From Escherichia coli (GTDB lineage: Bacteria > Pseudomonadota > Gammaproteobacteria > Enterobacterales > Enterobacteriaceae), in NCBI RefSeq assembly GCF_001677475.2, contig NZ_CP015229.1: DNA of 64,000 nt; one strand, written 5' to 3'. This document shows, one piece after another, positions 3 to 47,081 of this stretch. The notes below the pieces were generated by a model. The model was not told where the DNA came from. It worked only from the letters and a program-made list of their open reading frames with translations, and searched no databases. Within the stretch, counting starts at the first letter, position 1, and each line of letters starts with the position of its first letter. A program made the position numbers and the translations under genes.

Positions 3-578
3 GTGCCGGAGGGTGACAGTACGGTGGATGTCGCTAACCGCCTGATTGACTGGTGCCAGTCGCGCGGTGAAGCGGTTATCGCCAGTCAGGACTGGCACCC
101 GGCGAATCACGGCAGTTTTGCCAGTCAGCACGGTGTAGAGCCTTATACGCCAGGCCAACTCGACGGTTTGCCACAAACCTTCTGGCCAGATCACTGTGTG
201 CAGAACAGTGAAGGCGCACAATTACATCCGTTACTGAACCAAAAAGCGATCGCAGCGGTGTTCCATAAAGGCGAAAATCCTTTAGTTGACAGTTACAGTG
301 CCTTTTTTGATAACGGCCGTCGGCAGAAAACCTCGCTTGATGACTGGTTACGCGATCATGAAATCGATGAATTGATCGTTATGGGCCTGGCTACTGACTA
401 TTGCGTGAAGTTTACCGTGCTGGACGCGTTACAGTTAGGTTATAAGGTAAACGTGATTACCGATGGTTGTCGTGGCGTGAATATCCAGCCCCAGGACAGT
501 GCGCACGCGTTTATGGAGATGTCAGCAGCTGGGGCAACGCTATATACGCTGGCAGACTGGGAAGAGACGCAGGGGTAA
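3..578 (+). CDS. pncA: Nicotinamidase/pyrazinamidase PncA, 5'-truncated by window edge (the leading M in the ORF track is an internal GTG)
   Basis: ORF 3..578; isochorismatase-like sequence; lies upstream of the yeaC-msrB-gapA neighbourhood. Confidence 0.8.
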   Translation: MPEGDSTVDVANRLIDWCQSRGEAVIASQDWHPANHGSFASQHGVEPYTPGQLDGLPQTFWPDHCVQNSEGAQLHPLLNQKAIAAVFHKGENPLVDSYSAFFDNGRRQKTSLDDWLRDHEIDELIVMGLATDYCVKFTVLDALQLGYKVNVITDGCRGVNIQPQDSAHAFMEMSAAGATLYTLADWEETQG

Positions 579-598
579 TATTAGTTGAATTCATCTCT

Positions 599-629
599 GG
601 CCTACATTTCCTCAATGACATTGTAGGCC
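599..629. terminator. Inverted-repeat hairpin (ggcctaca...tgtaggcc) in the pncA-yeaC spacer; possible terminator
   Basis: 8-bp perfect stem read directly from sequence, just 3' of pncA stop. Confidence 0.3.
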
Positions 630-738
630 AGATAATACTTGTCAGTGTTGCATTTAACCTACTTACAGCTAAAACACGACGTCCGAACAAGTATATTTGC
701 CCTCCCTTAATAACAGGCTTAAATACTAGATAACTCAT

Positions 739-1011
739 TCACTTAAACATGGCAATAGGCTTTGCTGAGATACCAAAATCTTCTTTTAACTGCTGTTTGC
801 TCTTCATGACCATCTGACCATTTGTGTCAATTGTCATATGCTGTGCTTCGGTATTATGGCGGGCTTGCCACAGCATCACCAATTGCAGGCAGTTCTCTTT
901 TTGTTCCTCGGTCAACGCACCGCCATCGGGCCATTTCCCCAGTTCAACGGCGGTCGACAAACGCTGGTATACCTCAGGCGTCATGCTGTTGATAATGTCA
1001 TCAAGATTCAT
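739..1011 (-). CDS. yeaC: DUF1315 protein YeaC
   Basis: ORF 739..1056; start set at internal ATG (MNLDDIINSM) to avoid overlap with msrB; 90 aa. Confidence 0.75.
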   Translation of the reverse strand: MNLDDIINSMTPEVYQRLSTAVELGKWPDGGALTEEQKENCLQLVMLWQARHNTEAQHMTIDTNGQMVMKSKQQLKEDFGISAKPIAMFK

Positions 1012-1052
1012 AATTTTTCCGCTCCTGTGGAATAAGTTGCTGAATCGTTTTT

Positions 1053-1466
1053 TCAACCGTTGATTTCTTCGCCGTTTTCACCATCAGTGAAGCGTAAAGA
1101 AGCAGAGTTAACACAATAACGTTCGCCCGTTGGCTGCGGCCCGTCAGGGAAGACATGCCCCAGATGGGCATCACAGTTACCGCAACGAATTTCTATGCGC
1201 TGCATTCCATGTGACAAGTCTTTGATATAACGAATGGATTCTTCACTCACCGGTTCGTAGAAACTGGGCCAGCCACAGCCGGAATCATACTTGGTTTGGG
1301 AATGAAACAGCGGGGCATCGCAGATCAAACAGTGATATACGCCGTCACGCTTGTTATGCAGTAAACGACCCGTAAATGGCGGCTCTGTCCCATGATTCTG
1401 CGTCACGTAAAACTGCATCTCGGACAAATTTTTTTTCAGTTCTTCTGCCGAAGGTTTATTAGCCAT
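1053..1466 (-). CDS. msrB: Peptide methionine-(R)-S-oxide reductase MsrB
   Basis: ORF 1053..1496; SelR domain with CxxC...CxxC zinc motif and [13 protein letters not shown]; start set at [10 protein letters not shown]. Confidence 0.9.
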
Positions 1467-1795
1467 TTGCTCACATCTCACTTTAATCGTGCTCACATTA
1501 CGTGACTGATTCTAACAAAACATTAACACCAACTGGCAAAATTTTGTCCTAAACTTGATCTCGACGAAATGGCTGCACCTAAATCGTGATGAAAATCACA
1601 TTTTTATCGTAATTGCCCTTTAAAATTCGGGGCGCCGACCCCATGTGGTCTCAAGCCCAAAGGAAGAGTGAGGCGAGTCAGTCGCGTAATGCTTAGGCAC
1701 AGGATTGATTTGTCGCAATGATTGACACGATTCCGCTTGACGCTGCGTAAGGTTTTTGTAATTTTACAGGCAACCTTTTATTCACTAACAAATAG

Positions 1796-2803
<1,008 letters not shown>

Positions 2804-2824
2804 GTTGAGATGACACTGTGATCT

Positions 2825-2855
2825 AAAAAGAGCGACTTCGGTCGCTCTTTTTTTT
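2825..2855 (+). terminator. Rho-independent terminator of gapA
   Basis: aaaaagagcgacttcggtcgctc followed by T8 run, immediately after gapA stop. Confidence 0.7.
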
Positions 2856-2886
2856 ACCTGATAAAATGAAGTTAAAGGACTGCGTC

Positions 2887-3771
2887 ATGATTAAGAAAAT
2901 TTTTGCCCTTCCGGTCATCGAACAAATCTCCCCTGTCCTCTCCCGTCGTAAACTGGATGAACTGGACCTCATTGTGGTCGATCATCCCCAGGTAAAAGCC
3001 TCTTTTGCATTACAGGGCGCACACCTTCTCTCGTGGAAACCTGCGGGTGAAGAAGAAGTTCTGTGGTTGAGTAACAACACACCGTTCAAAAATGGCGTCG
3101 CCATTCGCGGTGGCGTACCGGTTTGCTGGCCGTGGTTTGGTCCGGCTGCACAACAAGGTCTGCCTGCGCACGGTTTTGCCCGCAACCTGCCGTGGACGCT
3201 GAAATCACATCGTGAAGATGCTGATGGCGTAGCGCTGACTTTTGAATTGACACAAAGCGAAGAGACGAAAAAATTCTGGCCACACGACTTTACGCTATTA
3301 GCGCATTTCCGCGTGGGTAAAGCCTGTGAAATCGATCTTGAAGCACACGGCGAATTTGAAACCACCTCTGCACTGCATACCTACTTTAACGTGGGTAATA
3401 TCGCTAAGGTAAGCGTCAGTGGGCTGGGCGATCGCTTCATTGATAAAGTGAATGACGCGAAAGAAGATGTACTGACCGACGGTATTCAGACCTTCCCTGA
3501 CCGTACCGATCGCGTGTATCTGAATCCGCAAGATTGCAGCGTTATTAATGATGAAGCGCTGAATCGTATTATCGCCGTAGGCCACCAGCATCATCTGAAC
3601 GTTGTAGGCTGGAACCCAGGACCGGCGCTTTCAGTTAGCATGGGCGATATGCCGGATGATGGCTACAAGACCTTTGTTTGTGTAGAAACGGCTTACGCTT
3701 CAGAAACGCAAAAAGTGACCAAAGAGAAACCTGCACATCTGGCGCAATCCATTCGCGTTGCGAAACGTTAA
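2887..3771 (+). CDS. yeaD: Putative glucose-6-phosphate 1-epimerase (aldose 1-epimerase family) YeaD
   Basis: ORF 2866..3771; start set at ATG 2887 (MIKKIFALP), 294 aa. Confidence 0.8.
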   Translation: MIKKIFALPVIEQISPVLSRRKLDELDLIVVDHPQVKASFALQGAHLLSWKPAGEEEVLWLSNNTPFKNGVAIRGGVPVCWPWFGPAAQQGLPAHGFARNLPWTLKSHREDADGVALTFELTQSEETKKFWPHDFTLLAHFRVGKACEIDLEAHGEFETTSALHTYFNVGNIAKVSVSGLGDRFIDKVNDAKEDVLTDGIQTFPDRTDRVYLNPQDCSVINDEALNRIIAVGHQHHLNVVGWNPGPALSVSMGDMPDDGYKTFVCVETAYASETQKVTKEKPAHLAQSIRVAKR

Positions 3772-9424: not shown

Positions 9425-10900
9425 ATGATTCGGTCAACACGTGTTTCCCTAGGGTTATTCTTTAAATATTTTTTATCGTTAACGAAAATTGATCCTGGTC
9501 AAAACTATATATCTCTGCCATCAATAAAATCCAGCACTCACATTGCTCTCCTTTTTATGGTTTCTATGGGTACACAAAAATTAAAAGCTCAAGGCTTTTT
9601 TATTTTCAGTTTATTGCTGACGTTAATTTTATTTTGCATTACTACCTTATATAACGAAAACACGAATGTAAAACTCATCCCACAGATGAATTACCTGATG
9701 GTTGTTGTGGCTTTGTTTTTCCTTAACGCCGTCATTTTTCTTTTCATGTTAATGAAATATTTCACTAACAAACAAATTTTACCAACACTCATTTTAAGCC
9801 TTGCATTTTTAAGTGGCCTTATCTATTTAGTTGAAACCATTGTAATTATCCATAAACCAATCAACGGCAGTACACTGATCCAGACAAAGTCGAATGATGT
9901 TTCTATTTTCTATATTTTCCGCCAACTCAGTTTTATTTGTTTAACCTCGCTGGCGCTCTTTTGTTATGGAAAAGACAACATCTTTGAAAACAATAAGAAA
10001 AAAACTGGCATTCTGTTACTGGCGCTGATTCCTTTTTTAGTTTTTCCCCTTCTGGCACACAATCTGAGCAGTTATAACGCTGACTATTCTTTGTATGTCG
10101 TCGATTACTGTCCGGACAACCATACTGCGACCTGGGGAATCAACTATACAAAAATATTGGTTTGTTTGTGGGCATTTTTACTGTTCTTTATTATCATGCG
10201 TACACGATTAGCCAGCGAACTATGGCCGTTAATAGCATTATTATGTCTGGCATCGCTATGCTGCAACTTACTTCTACTGACTCTGGATGAGTATAATTAC
10301 ACCATCTGGTATATCAGTCGTGGGATTGAAGTTTCCAGTAAACTGTTTGTTGTGTCTTTTCTGATTTATAACATTTTTCAGGAACTGCAACTCTCCAGCA
10401 AACTGGCAGTTCATGATGTGCTGACCAATATTTATAATCGGCGCTACTTTTTCAACAGCGTAGAGTCATTATTGTCGCGACCTGTTGTTAAGGACTTCTG
10501 TGTCATGCTGGTTGATATTAATCAGTTCAAACGCATCAATGCCCAATGGGGACATCGTGTGGGTGATAAAGTGCTGGTTTCAATTGTCGATATTATCCAG
10601 CAAAGCATCCGCCCCGATGATATTTTAGCGCGACTGGAGGGTGAGGTGTTTGGCTTGCTGTTTACCGAACTCAATAGTGCCCAGGCAAAAATCATTGCAG
10701 AACGTATGCGTAAAAATGTCGAACTCCTGACCGGCTTTAGTAACAGATATGATGTTCCTGAACAAATGACCATCAGTATTGGCACGGTTTTTTCAACGGG
10801 TGACACGCGTAATATCTCGCTTGTCATGACGGAAGCAGATAAAGCCTTACGCGAAGCGAAAAGCGAGGGGGGCAACAAAGTGATTATTCATCATATTTAA
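9425..10900 (+). CDS. yeaI: Membrane protein with degenerate GGDEF domain (EGEVF) YeaI/CdgI
   Basis: ORF 9425..10900, 491 aa; multi-TM N-terminus; GGDEF-like C-terminus with EGEVF in place of GG(D/E)EF; AT-rich gene. Confidence 0.8.
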   Translation: MIRSTRVSLGLFFKYFLSLTKIDPGQNYISLPSIKSSTHIALLFMVSMGTQKLKAQGFFIFSLLLTLILFCITTLYNENTNVKLIPQMNYLMVVVALFFLNAVIFLFMLMKYFTNKQILPTLILSLAFLSGLIYLVETIVIIHKPINGSTLIQTKSNDVSIFYIFRQLSFICLTSLALFCYGKDNIFENNKKKTGILLLALIPFLVFPLLAHNLSSYNADYSLYVVDYCPDNHTATWGINYTKILVCLWAFLLFFIIMRTRLASELWPLIALLCLASLCCNLLLLTLDEYNYTIWYISRGIEVSSKLFVVSFLIYNIFQELQLSSKLAVHDVLTNIYNRRYFFNSVESLLSRPVVKDFCVMLVDINQFKRINAQWGHRVGDKVLVSIVDIIQQSIRPDDILARLEGEVFGLLFTELNSAQAKIIAERMRKNVELLTGFSNRYDVPEQMTISIGTVFSTGDTRNISLVMTEADKALREAKSEGGNKVIIHHI

Positions 10901-11080
10901 GTGCAAAAATATTCAGAGCCATGCTTTTTGCGTGGCTTTTGCATACAATTTATTACTATTACCCCTAAATTTCCCCTCCCCAGCGGCGCAGAGATGAGTA
11001 TAATTAGCGCCCCTGTGCCAGGCCGCAATCGAACTTTATCTGGTTTTCTCGTTTCACTAACCGAAGGAGTGCCATTTATC

Positions 11081-12571
11081 ATGAAATTGCACCATAGAAT
11101 GCTCCGGCATTTTATCGCCGCAAGTGTCATTGTGCTGACATCTTCCTTCCTTATTTTTGAACTTGTCGCCAGCGACAGAGCAATGAGTGCTTATCTGCGC
11201 TATATCGTGCAGAGAGCAGACTCCTCCTTTCTTTATGATAAGTATCAGAATCAGAGTATTGCCGCGCATGTGATGCGCGCTCTCGCTGCTGAGCAGTCGG
11301 AAGTGTCGCCAGAACAGCGGCGCGCCATCTGCGAGGCTTTTGAGTCTGCCAATAATACCCATGGCTTAAACCTGACTGCCCATAAATACCCGGGCTTACG
11401 CGGCACACTACAAACCGCATCCACTGACTGCGACACAATTGTGGAAGCTGCAGCACTATTACCCGCTTTTGATCAGGCAGTGGAAGGCAACCGCCACCAG
11501 GATGATTACGGTTCAGGTCTTGGGATGGCCGAAGAGAAATTTCACTATTATCTCGATCTCAATGACCGCTATGTCTATTTTTATGAGCCGGTTAATGTTG
11601 AATACTTTGCGATGAATAACTGGTCCTTCCTGCAGTCAGGAAGTATTGGCATCGATCGCAAAGATATTGAAAAGGTATTTACCGGGCGTACCGTATTATC
11701 GAGCATTTACCAGGATCAGCGTACTAAACAGAACGTGATGAGTTTGCTGACGCCGGTATATGTCGCAGGGCAGCTAAAAGGGATTGTGCTGCTGGATATT
11801 AACAAAAACAATTTGCGGAATATCTTTTACACTCATGACCGCCCTCTCCTCTGGCGTTTTCTCAATGTCACGCTAACTGATACCGATTCGGGGCGCGACA
11901 TTATCATCAACCAGAGCGAAGATAATCTGTTCCAGTATGTCAGTTACGTCCATGACTTACCGGGCGGCATTCGTGTCTCGTTATCCATTGATATTCTTTA
12001 CTTTATCACGTCTTCGTGGAAAAGCGTTCTGTTCTGGATTTTGACGGCGTTAATTTTGCTGAATATGGTCCGGATGCACTTCCGTTTATACCAAAATGTG
12101 TCGCGAGAAAATATTAGTGATGCGATGACTGGACTGTATAATCGCAAAATTTTAACCCCTGAACTGGAACAGCGGTTGCAGAAACTGGTGCAATCCGGTT
12201 CTTCGGTGATGTTTATTGCTATTGACATGGACAAGTTAAAGCAAATAAATGACACCCTCGGTCATCAGGAGGGGGATTTAGCGATTACGTTATTAGCTCA
12301 GGCGATTAAACAGTCGATTCGTAAAAGTGATTATGCCATCCGACTCGGTGGCGATGAATTCTGCATCATCCTTGTCGATTCGACGCCGCAAATTGCAGCA
12401 CAACTGCCTGAACGTATCGAAAAACGTCTGCAACATATCGCGCCGCAGAAAGAGATCGGCTTCTCTTCCGGTATTTACGCGATGAAAGAAAACGATACGT
12501 TACATGATGCGTATAAAGCTTCCGATGAGCGTTTATATGTCAATAAGCAGAACAAAAACAGCCGTTCATGA
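11081..12571 (+). CDS. dgcJ: Diguanylate cyclase DgcJ (YeaJ), periplasmic sensor plus GGDEF
   Basis: ORF 10901..12571; start set at ATG 11081 (MKLHHRMLRH) preceded by aaggagt RBS; RLGGDEF active-site motif. Confidence 0.8.
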   Translation: MKLHHRMLRHFIAASVIVLTSSFLIFELVASDRAMSAYLRYIVQRADSSFLYDKYQNQSIAAHVMRALAAEQSEVSPEQRRAICEAFESANNTHGLNLTAHKYPGLRGTLQTASTDCDTIVEAAALLPAFDQAVEGNRHQDDYGSGLGMAEEKFHYYLDLNDRYVYFYEPVNVEYFAMNNWSFLQSGSIGIDRKDIEKVFTGRTVLSSIYQDQRTKQNVMSLLTPVYVAGQLKGIVLLDINKNNLRNIFYTHDRPLLWRFLNVTLTDTDSGRDIIINQSEDNLFQYVSYVHDLPGGIRVSLSIDILYFITSSWKSVLFWILTALILLNMVRMHFRLYQNVSRENISDAMTGLYNRKILTPELEQRLQKLVQSGSSVMFIAIDMDKLKQINDTLGHQEGDLAITLLAQAIKQSIRKSDYAIRLGGDEFCIILVDSTPQIAAQLPERIEKRLQHIAPQKEIGFSSGIYAMKENDTLHDAYKASDERLYVNKQNKNSRS

Positions 12572-44665: not shown

Positions 44666-44673
44666 AGTTGTTT
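44666..44673. repeat. Left copy of 8-bp target-site duplication AGTTGTTT flanking the IS
   Basis: Identical 8-mer immediately outside both IS ends (44666-44673 and 47082-47089). Confidence 0.6.
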
Positions 44674-44765
44674 ATGAGACGACAATAACTCAGTCCGCCT
44701 GGCGCCGATTATTCTGGCCGGTTTTGTAACCTGAGTGTCATTTACATGATCCAACAGGAAATGGC

Positions 44766-46265
44766 GTGACGCTCAATACTTCTCAGGTCAGTTACTATAT
44801 GACTCAGCGTAAGAAAGGTATAACTCAGCATATCTCGGCCATGAAGGCTGGTATCTCAGTCCGTTCTGGTCGTCGGATCGAAAAAGGAGAGTGGGCAAAA
44901 AACAGTGTTCGGCACTGGCGCACACGCAAAGATCCTCTGGAAGCTGTGTGGGACAGCATGCTTGTTCCTCTGTTGAAAGAGAGGCCGGCTCTGACACCAA
45001 CAACTCTACTGGAGATGCTACAGGATAAATATCCCGGCCAGTACCCCAACAGCCTTCGAAGAACAATGCAACGGCGGGTTCGCGAATGGAAACTACAGTA
45101 TGGTACAGAGCAGGAGGTCATGTTCCGCCAGCAACATCAGCCCGGCCTGCGAGGCCTGTCGGACTTTACTGAACTGAAAGGTGTAGTTGTCACCATCGCC
45201 GGTAAGTTGTTGGCGCATAAGTTGTATCACTTCCGTCTGGAATGGAGCCACTGGAGCTGGATGCGGGTTGTTCTGGGTGGTGAGAGCTTCTCTGCTCTGG
45301 CTGAAGGCCTGCAGGAAGCCCTCGGACAACTGGGCGGAGTGCCGGTAGAACATAAAACGGACAGCCTGAGGGCAGCATGGAAACAACAGGGCGAAGATGG
45401 ACGCCGCGAGCTGACTGAGCGTTATGCTACTCTCTGTCAGCACTACGGAATGCAGGGCGTACACAATAATGCCGGTCGGGGCCACGAAAATGGCTCGGTT
45501 GAAAGTGCCCACGGACATCTGAAAAGGCGTATCTGTCAGGCGCTGATACTGCGGGGCAGTAACGACTTCAGCACCATAGAAGAATATCAGGCCTTCATCA
45601 CTCAGCAGGTTATGCGGCACAACCGTAACAATCAGGATCTGGTCAAGGAAGAACGTCTTCATCTGAAACCGCTGCCGCTTCGTCGCAGTGCTGACTATGA
45701 TGAGCTGACTGTGAGGGTTAGTCGCAGCAGTACCATCAATGTGAAGCACGTCGTCTACAGCGTACCTTCCCGGCTTGTAGGTCAACTGTTACGGGTCAGG
45801 TTATGGGACGATCGTCTGAGCTGTTACGTTGGCAGCAGCGAGGTCATGAGCTGCCCTCGCGTCAGACCAGAAAAAGGGAAGACGCGGGCCCGTCGTATCG
45901 ACTTCCGACATGTGATCGACAGTCTGGCAAAAAAGCCCGGTGCGTTCTGCCATGCAACGCTGAGAAATGACATCCTGCCGGACGATGAATGGCGGAGGCT
46001 GTGGCGTCGCTTATGTAATCATCTGGAGCCCGATATGGCAGGAAGGCTGATGGTACATGCCCTGAAACTGGCTGCAGGATACGACGATATCTCAGTCGTG
46101 GCAAAAGGTATGGAGCAGATGCTGAATACCCCGGGAAACGTGGATCTGCACCGGCTGATGCGCTTCCTGGGTATAAAAGAAAAGGCGTTGCCGGTAGTCA
46201 ATGTGATACAGCATAACCTGAGCAGTTATGAGCAACTACTGCGTGGCAAGGGAGGTTCGCAGTGA
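44766..46265 (+). CDS. istA: IS21-family transposase IstA
   Basis: ORF 44766..46265, 499 aa; N-terminal HTH-like region; start may be GTG 44766 or ATG 44799; stop overlaps istB start (GTGA). Confidence 0.85.
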   Translation: MTLNTSQVSYYMTQRKKGITQHISAMKAGISVRSGRRIEKGEWAKNSVRHWRTRKDPLEAVWDSMLVPLLKERPALTPTTLLEMLQDKYPGQYPNSLRRTMQRRVREWKLQYGTEQEVMFRQQHQPGLRGLSDFTELKGVVVTIAGKLLAHKLYHFRLEWSHWSWMRVVLGGESFSALAEGLQEALGQLGGVPVEHKTDSLRAAWKQQGEDGRRELTERYATLCQHYGMQGVHNNAGRGHENGSVESAHGHLKRRICQALILRGSNDFSTIEEYQAFITQQVMRHNRNNQDLVKEERLHLKPLPLRRSADYDELTVRVSRSSTINVKHVVYSVPSRLVGQLLRVRLWDDRLSCYVGSSEVMSCPRVRPEKGKTRARRIDFRHVIDSLAKKPGAFCHATLRNDILPDDEWRRLWRRLCNHLEPDMAGRLMVHALKLAAGYDDISVVAKGMEQMLNTPGNVDLHRLMRFLGIKEKALPVVNVIQHNLSSYEQLLRGKGGSQ

Positions 46266-47017
46266 GCAATATCCATCACCTTGAACATAGCCTGCGTAAA
46301 CTACGCCTGACACGAGTTGGAGCTGAATGGCACGCTCTGGAAAAACGAGCGCTGGCAGAAGGCTGGACACCATCGCGCTATCTTCTGACGCTATGCAATG
46401 AAGAACTCCTGTGGCGCGAGAGTGAAAAACTGCGTCGTTATAAAAAGGAGGCCCGGTTGCCAGTTGCCAAAACGCTGAGCGAATACGACTTCAGTCAGGT
46501 GCCGGAACTGAATGGAGCTCAGTTCCGGCAACTCTGTGAAACGACAGACTGGGTTGATGCAGGAGAAAACGTTCTGCTGTTCGGAGCCAGCGGGTTGGGG
46601 AAAAGCCATCTGGCGGCAGCGATCGTGGATGGCGTAGTAGGTCAGGGCTACCGGGCCCGGTTCTACAGCGCAGGAGAGCTGTTGCAGGAACTACGTAAAG
46701 CCAGAGCTCAGTTGAAACTGAATGAGCTGCTACTGAAACTGGATCGCTACCGGGTGATAGTGGTGGATGATCTTGGCTATGTCAAACGCGATAGTGCCGA
46801 AACGGGTGTGCTGTTCGAGTTAATAGCGCATCGCTATGAACGTGGGAGCCTGGTGATAACCAGTAACCATCCGTTCAGCATGTGGGGCAGCATCTTCGTG
46901 GATGAGACTATGGCGGTGGCTGCGGCAGACAGGCTGCTCCATCACGGATATATGTTCGAACTGAAAGGGGAAAGCTACAGGAAAAAGACAGCGAAGGCAG
47001 TAACAAGCGCGACTTGA
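46262..47017 (+). CDS. istB: IS21-family helper ATPase IstB (AAA+/DnaC-like)
   Basis: ORF 46262..47017, 251 aa; Walker A GASGLGKSHLA; Walker B VVDDLGY. Confidence 0.85.
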   Translation: MSNIHHLEHSLRKLRLTRVGAEWHALEKRALAEGWTPSRYLLTLCNEELLWRESEKLRRYKKEARLPVAKTLSEYDFSQVPELNGAQFRQLCETTDWVDAGENVLLFGASGLGKSHLAAAIVDGVVGQGYRARFYSAGELLQELRKARAQLKLNELLLKLDRYRVIVVDDLGYVKRDSAETGVLFELIAHRYERGSLVITSNHPFSMWGSIFVDETMAVAAADRLLHHGYMFELKGESYRKKTAKAVTSAT

Positions 47018-47081
47018 TGTCGCCCTGAAGGGTGCGGCCAGTATAGTTGGCGCGAGTCGGCAAAACTAGTTGACGTCTAAT

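Follow-up and report, generated by a model that had tools for sequence, protein, structure and literature searches.

The short pncA–yeaC junction of an Escherichia coli strain, most likely an old and distinct allele without the ydj operon

The stretch of Escherichia coli DNA analyzed here, referred to below as the window, is 64,000 nucleotides long and starts inside pncA, the gene for nicotinamidase. The 3′ part of pncA is an open reading frame on the plus strand (3–578; stop codon TAA at 576–578). It is 99.0–99.1% identical to K-12 pncA, and the matching genomes carry the pncA annotation at this place. Convergent with it on the minus strand is yeaC (739–1011), which encodes a 90-aa DUF1315 protein (Pfam E-value 3.8e-27) and ends with TGA at 739–741, whereas K-12 yeaC ends with TAA. 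Upstream of yeaC and on the same strand lies the open reading frame of msrB (methionine-R-sulfoxide reductase, 1053–1466), after which come gapA (open reading frame at 1808–2803, plus strand), yeaD and yeaE. Exactly 160 bp (579–738) separate the pncA stop codon from the yeaC stop codon, in keeping with the original prediction of about 160 bp. We call this short pncA–yeaC junction the S allele, and a junction in which the ydj block is present the L allele. The S spacer has two parts. The pncA-side part (579–655) is common to ydj-bearing alleles but diverged: it aligns to K-12 with ~80% identity and an 11-bp indel. The yeaC-side part (656–738) is an S-specific segment of 83 bp for which alignment and sensitive blastn detect no K-12 counterpart. 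In the S allele, pncA and yeaC are thus convergent neighbors with only a conserved hairpin between them.

In K-12 the two genes are not adjacent; direct adjacency in the reference, which would have refuted the original prediction, is not seen. According to the MG1655 annotation, the gene order is sppA, ansA, pncA, ydjE-F-G-H-I-J-K-L, yeaC, msrB, gapA, and the ydjE–ydjL block (locus b1768–b1777; 1852621–1861332 of the record, all on the minus strand) measures 8.7 kb, which agrees with the ~9 kb of the original prediction. The products of ydjLKJIHGFE are two MFS transporters, a DeoR-type regulator, one kinase, one aldolase, and three dehydrogenases/reductases, and the operon serves a sugar acid. 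No part of the K-12 block is found anywhere in the window. The strain therefore lacks the block at this locus, as predicted, and on the 64 kb covered here it most likely lacks the whole ydj pathway.

The transition between conserved and diverged sequence falls at the two stop codons. Identity to K-12 is 99% through pncA and drops to ~80% from the pncA stop codon onward; on the right side, identity of 99.4% resumes at the yeaC stop codon. The last ~240 bp of pncA contain a single difference, at position 569, which is private to the window, and the first 110 bp of yeaC from the junction (741–850) are identical to K-12. The alignment of the window to K-12 ends at ~655 and restarts at ~729–741. 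The position held by 656–738 is taken in L alleles by 9.1 kb, made up of ydjE–ydjL and a 369-bp ydjL–yeaC intergenic region. The suggestion that the junction marks an indel boundary needs refinement, as the difference is not a clean indel: since 83 bp without a K-12 counterpart stand in place of 9.1 kb, it is better described as a replacement. No homology links the 83-bp segment to the yeaC-adjoining 100 bp of K-12 (pairwise alignment against shuffles, z = −0.9). A MAFFT alignment gave the impression that 688–738 is a degraded form of the K-12 yeaC-side hairpin (ATCCCCTT...AAGGGGAT); pairwise shuffling tests did not support this reading for the window (value above) and supported it only marginally, with a z of 2.2, for the related spacer of a cryptic Escherichia (L007, see below).

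The hairpin had been placed at 599–629, and these coordinates are exact for the pattern GGCCTAC-N17-GTAGGCC, which occurs once in the 64-kb window against 0 expected copies (100 shuffles). RNA folding gives a stem of 11 bp, in which 596–606 pair with 622–632. The stem-loop is G+C-rich, and the folding energy of the 160-nt spacer is −32.2 kcal/mol (z = −2.7). The 8-bp core of the stem (TGGCCTAC/GTAGGCCA) is unchanged in six alleles, of both S and L type, that represent four Escherichia lineages; the loop and the surroundings vary among these six. Because the stem core is invariant, there is no covariation in the stem among the six alleles, and conservation of the structure is therefore indistinguishable from conservation of a sequence motif. 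The hairpin is not a canonical intrinsic (Rho-independent) terminator, because neither strand carries a U-tract 3′ of the stem (on the plus strand the stem is followed by AGATAATAC, on the minus strand by AGAGATGAA) and a terminator scan of 400–1100 came back empty. It may instead be a stabilizer of the pncA 3′ end, or it may act on both convergent transcripts. Its arms resemble the GGCCTAC tail of the repetitive extragenic palindrome (REP), which is a dispersed multi-copy unit, and the palindrome itself is present once in the window.

Other candidate features of the spacer did not hold up. Positions 400–1900 have no Rfam match at E-values up to 1 and thus no known RNA in the spacer, and scans of 400–1100 (both strands for terminators) returned no promoter or terminator-like site. 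Two open reading frames were rejected as genes. One of 75 aa (511–738, minus strand) reaches into pncA in antisense or in another frame, and one of 88 aa (467–733, plus strand) overlaps pncA likewise in another reading frame or in antisense; indels between the window and L007 break the frame of both.

Beyond the junction, the window is collinear with K-12, with 97.9–98.6% identity over 64 kb and a single IS. Its best match among 5,426 complete E. coli genomes is only 98.9–99.0% identical, and its lineage is therefore poorly represented among finished genomes. A Shigella origin was considered as the reason for this 99% ceiling and finds no support in a window that is collinear with K-12 and carries one IS. 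The IS is an IS21-family element (ISEc10-like) of 2.4 kb at 44673–47076, located between yobD and mntP relative to K-12 and encoding IstA (44766–46265) and IstB (46262–47017; Pfam IstB_IS21, E-value 7e-62). The whole query across the yobD–mntP site is covered by none of the 5,426 complete genomes, so the insertion is absent there in all of them. A further difference from K-12 is ~225 bp of extra sequence at the dmlA–yeaV boundary (22175–22400), part of which may give the transporter gene downstream a new 5′ end or start region.

How common the S allele is was surveyed in the same 5,426 complete genomes. A 1.5-kb query for the S junction gave one continuous match in 1,089 (20%) and matched in two separate places in the rest. 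The 160-bp spacer alone matched in 1,087 genomes, and it lies once per carrier genome, between pncA and yeaC. A sensitive blastn search with 645–740 matched in 1,090 genomes, always as a single copy and always adjoining yeaC. The K-12 ydj block is matched in 4,336 genomes (80%). The S and L counts are complementary, which suggests that no complete S genome carries a copy of ydj elsewhere. Carriers of L include K-12 (phylogroup A), O157:H7, O127:H6, Seattle 1946 and PCN033. Carriers of S include 88-3493, O26, O103:H2 and O111 STEC, and APEC O78, the latter four belonging to phylogroups B1 and C. Over the next 20 kb, the closest relative of the window's backbone is PCN033 (98.9% identity), and this strain carries L, so that S is not bound to a single backbone. 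Two papers in Biochemistry (2019) that deal with YdjH and YdjI reportedly put the cluster in ~80% of E. coli genomes. Presence or absence of ydj is a polymorphism that has already been documented, with prevalences by phylogroup: among 700 meat-plant isolates, the prevalence of ydjI was 100% in phylogroups B2, D and E, 96.6% in A, 50% in C and 29.9% in B1, and its absence, at least in these isolates, is mainly a matter of B1 and C (PMC9602453). The S allele is a common natural variant and not a new feature.

The direction of change was approached through the yeaC loci of 80 species-level Enterobacteriaceae genomes, a set without E. fergusonii, E. marmotae, E. ruysiae and a complete E. albertii locus; the K-12 proteins were located in each. 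In 17 of the 80, yeaC and pncA are separated by the ydj block in unchanged orientation, and pncA adjoins yeaC within 500 bp in 24, including Salmonella arizonae, diarizonae and Kosakonia. Other DNA occupies the interval in 26 genomes (0.5–3 kb) and in 4 more (>3 kb), pncA is not within 10 kb of yeaC in 5, and the arrangement was undeterminable in 4. Carriers of ydj at this locus are E. whittamii, Escherichia sp. E1V33, Citrobacter spp., the Klebsiella oxytoca group, Raoultella planticola and Intestinirhabdus. Across 12 genomes of 5 genera, the identity of ydj to K-12 follows that of the flanks. It is 89% in E. whittamii and Escherichia sp. E1V33 (flanks 91%), 79–80% in Citrobacter (flanks 82–84%), and 78–79% in the K. 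oxytoca group and Raoultella (flanks 79–80%). Divergence out of step with the flanks, which would indicate a recent horizontal arrival of ydj, was not seen in these 12 genomes.

These data bear on the alternative that ydj entered K-12 and the rest of the 80% of E. coli as an inserted island, with the S spacer representing an ancestral site that was never occupied. The 24 species in which pncA adjoins yeaC argue for such a history, but the S spacer has no homology to the empty sites of Salmonella, Kosakonia, Enterobacter or Phytobacter. The GC content of the block (46.4%) is below that of the sppA–pncA flank (51.8%), but the right flank is equally low (47.3%). The occurrence of the S spacer type in a second Escherichia lineage also counts for a gain; it has to be weighed against a block that keeps its locus and orientation in several genera, diverges in step with its flanks, and is 97.7–100% identical among phylogroups A, B2, D and E, as core genes are. 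No terminal direct or inverted repeats surround the block, and no integrase, transposase or tRNA is annotated among its eight genes, all of which are metabolic, transport or regulatory. By repeats, mobility genes and divergence, then, it does not qualify as a mobile genomic island. We consider a gain of this kind unlikely, and K-12 did not gain the block recently. The original prediction had allowed either that this strain lacks the block or that K-12 gained it; with ydj at the locus in 17 of 80 genomes and its divergence tracking the flanks, loss is favored and a gain by K-12 is disfavored. From the 80 species representatives we infer that, most simply, the Escherichia–Citrobacter–Klebsiella group had the ydj operon at this locus ancestrally and its absence would be a loss.

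Several further observations concern the same interval in other species. The space from yeaC to pncA, or from yeaC to ydjL, contains a GH18 (chitinase-like) gene in three Citrobacter and Enterobacter loci taken as examples from the 0.5–3 kb class (L009 10334–12107, L020 10329–11663 and L022 10759–12039), and L009 adds an adjoining HNH nuclease gene; the interval therefore carries different cargo in different Enterobacteriaceae. The Klebsiella and Raoultella loci have gaps of a size similar to the GH18-bearing ones. In E. albertii NBRC 107761 (L004 8882–9330), the L-type yeaC-side hairpin is still present in the 449 bp that follow yeaC; from there to the end of the contig, these 449 bp have no match to ydjL, pncA or the S spacer, and the sequence may be a further allele. 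Finally, a stretch of ~60 bp upstream of ydjL (GTCAACATTAAATCTGTAAAACACAGATAATGATCTGCGTTTTACAAC..., L001 12380–12450, K-12) is conserved from E. coli to Citrobacter and partly in Intestinirhabdus. It probably serves as the ydj promoter and DeoR-type (YdjF) operator.

The age of the S allele can be judged from its relatives. The S spacer is homologous over its full length to the empty site of L007 (75% identity over 142 bp, E-value 5e-21), a lineage that is ~9% divergent. S is also diverse inside E. coli, where a sub-allele of 90–95% identity occurs in 77 genomes. On the other side, blastn of the spacer against K-12, E. whittamii and E1V33 covers only spacer positions 19–75, and the 83-bp segment has no homology that we could find with the L allele or with the empty sites of other genera. 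It is absent from every one of the 4,336 L genomes, as the sensitive search with 645–740 returned S genomes only. Because the 83 bp are specific to S within E. coli and recur in another Escherichia lineage, we infer that S is most likely an old distinct allele and not the scar of a recent deletion.

A recent deletion of ydjE–ydjL in place, by illegitimate or IS-mediated recombination, would make the 160 bp such a scar. Events of this kind are known at the locus, for example the IS1-bounded remnant of KTa005 and the 109-bp spacer of Escherichia sp. MOD1-EC7003, but a scar is hard to reconcile with the absence of 656–738 from all L genomes in the sensitive search, with one spacer that recurs in 1,089 genomes, diverges by up to 5% among them and is also found in a lineage ~9% divergent, or with a junction that has no IS or repeat. 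We regard it as very improbable. An artefact of assembly or sequencing as the source of the pncA–yeaC abutment in the window can be dismissed, since the junction, annotated as pncA next to yeaC, recurs at 98–99.4% identity in 1,089 independently finished genomes; the sole oddity of the window, its best identity of ~99% to any complete E. coli, was not counted in favor of an artefact.

Our preferred reading takes S for an old loss allele, without the ancestral ydj operon, which homologous recombination has moved between lineages; we give this reading as a whole a probability of about 0.75. The proposed history is as follows. The ydj operon would have been ancestral at the locus, and S would have arisen by an old loss. 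The S spacer keeps the pncA-side segment with the hairpin and has in addition 83 bp that are absent from K-12-type chromosomes. The two alleles most likely coexist stably within E. coli (20% S versus 80% L) and are probably swapped between lineages through homologous recombination in the conserved flanks (ansA–pncA on one side, yeaC–msrB–gapA on the other). The intergenic core would be too diverged to recombine and would thus stay linked to the indel. Such swapping would explain why the divergence between the alleles collapses to ~1% exactly at both stop codons. It is this sharp drop, seen in a handful of sequences, that points to recombination as the probable means of spread.

A side observation touches on the same process. 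In two cryptic Escherichia that bear ydj (L006 and L008), pncA (19441–20086) shares only 84% identity with its E. coli counterpart, and in the S-bearing L007 it is 94% identical (10444–11082); on the yeaC side, all three are ~91% identical to E. coli. The 84% against 94% hints that pncA and the spacer may travel together by recombination.

The preferred reading can be extended to a long-lived S/L polymorphism across Escherichia species, kept at intermediate frequency by niche-dependent selection on the ydj substrate and combined with a function for the 83 bp. The segment could, for example, be a replacement 3′ end or 3′-UTR element for the msrB–yeaC transcript after loss of the L-type yeaC-side hairpin. 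This extension is speculative, and we hold it to be decidedly doubtful.

For annotation and strain typing, the practical outcome is that this strain most likely has no ydj sugar-acid pathway, like ~20% of E. coli. The locus offers a small, clear example of gene-content variation in E. coli, in which what is most likely an old loss allele exists beside an intact operon, homogenization of the flanks reaches as far as the stop codons, and divergence persists only in the intergenic core. It is an ordinary accessory-operon polymorphism and opens no new question; the sole addition made here is that the junction is most likely an old distinct allele rather than a deletion scar.

Comparison with known arrangements places the window as follows. 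It shares with K-12 MG1655 the order and orientation of the flanks at ~99% identity (ansA–pncA on the left; yeaC–msrB–gapA–yeaD–yeaE on the right) and the GGCCTAC/GTAGGCC core in the hairpin downstream of pncA. It differs in that K-12 has 9.1 kb where the window holds 83 unrelated bp, and the sequences adjoining yeaC cannot be aligned. KTa005 and MOD1-EC7003 are genuinely recent deletions which, like the window, are missing most or all ydj genes between pncA and yeaC. The IS1-mediated deletion in KTa005 reads pncA, a ydjE fragment, IS1, K-12-type sequence, yeaC, and the 109-bp spacer of MOD1-EC7003 retains, on its yeaC side, 65 bp of K-12-type sequence with 83% identity. Unlike both, the window is without K-12-type sequence on the yeaC side, and unlike KTa005 it has neither a ydjE remnant nor IS1. 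A recent deletion has also occurred inside S itself, where BS-04 has lost 88 bp. L007, which is recorded as 'E. coli' SCPM-O-B-8794 but is a cryptic Escherichia and the representative of its own GTDB species, resembles the window in that pncA adjoins yeaC and in that the homology of its spacer includes the S-specific part and the hairpin. Its spacer is longer (174 bp) and 75–76% identical, within flanks that are 91–94% identical to the window, and it retains a faint likeness to the K-12 sequence adjoining yeaC (z = 2.2) that is gone from the window. The S junctions of B1/C-type E. coli such as 88-3493 carry the same 160-bp spacer, at 98–99.4% identity, in the same place; these strains differ from the window in a backbone that is not close to it, with flanks 98.6–98.9% identical in the case of 88-3493.
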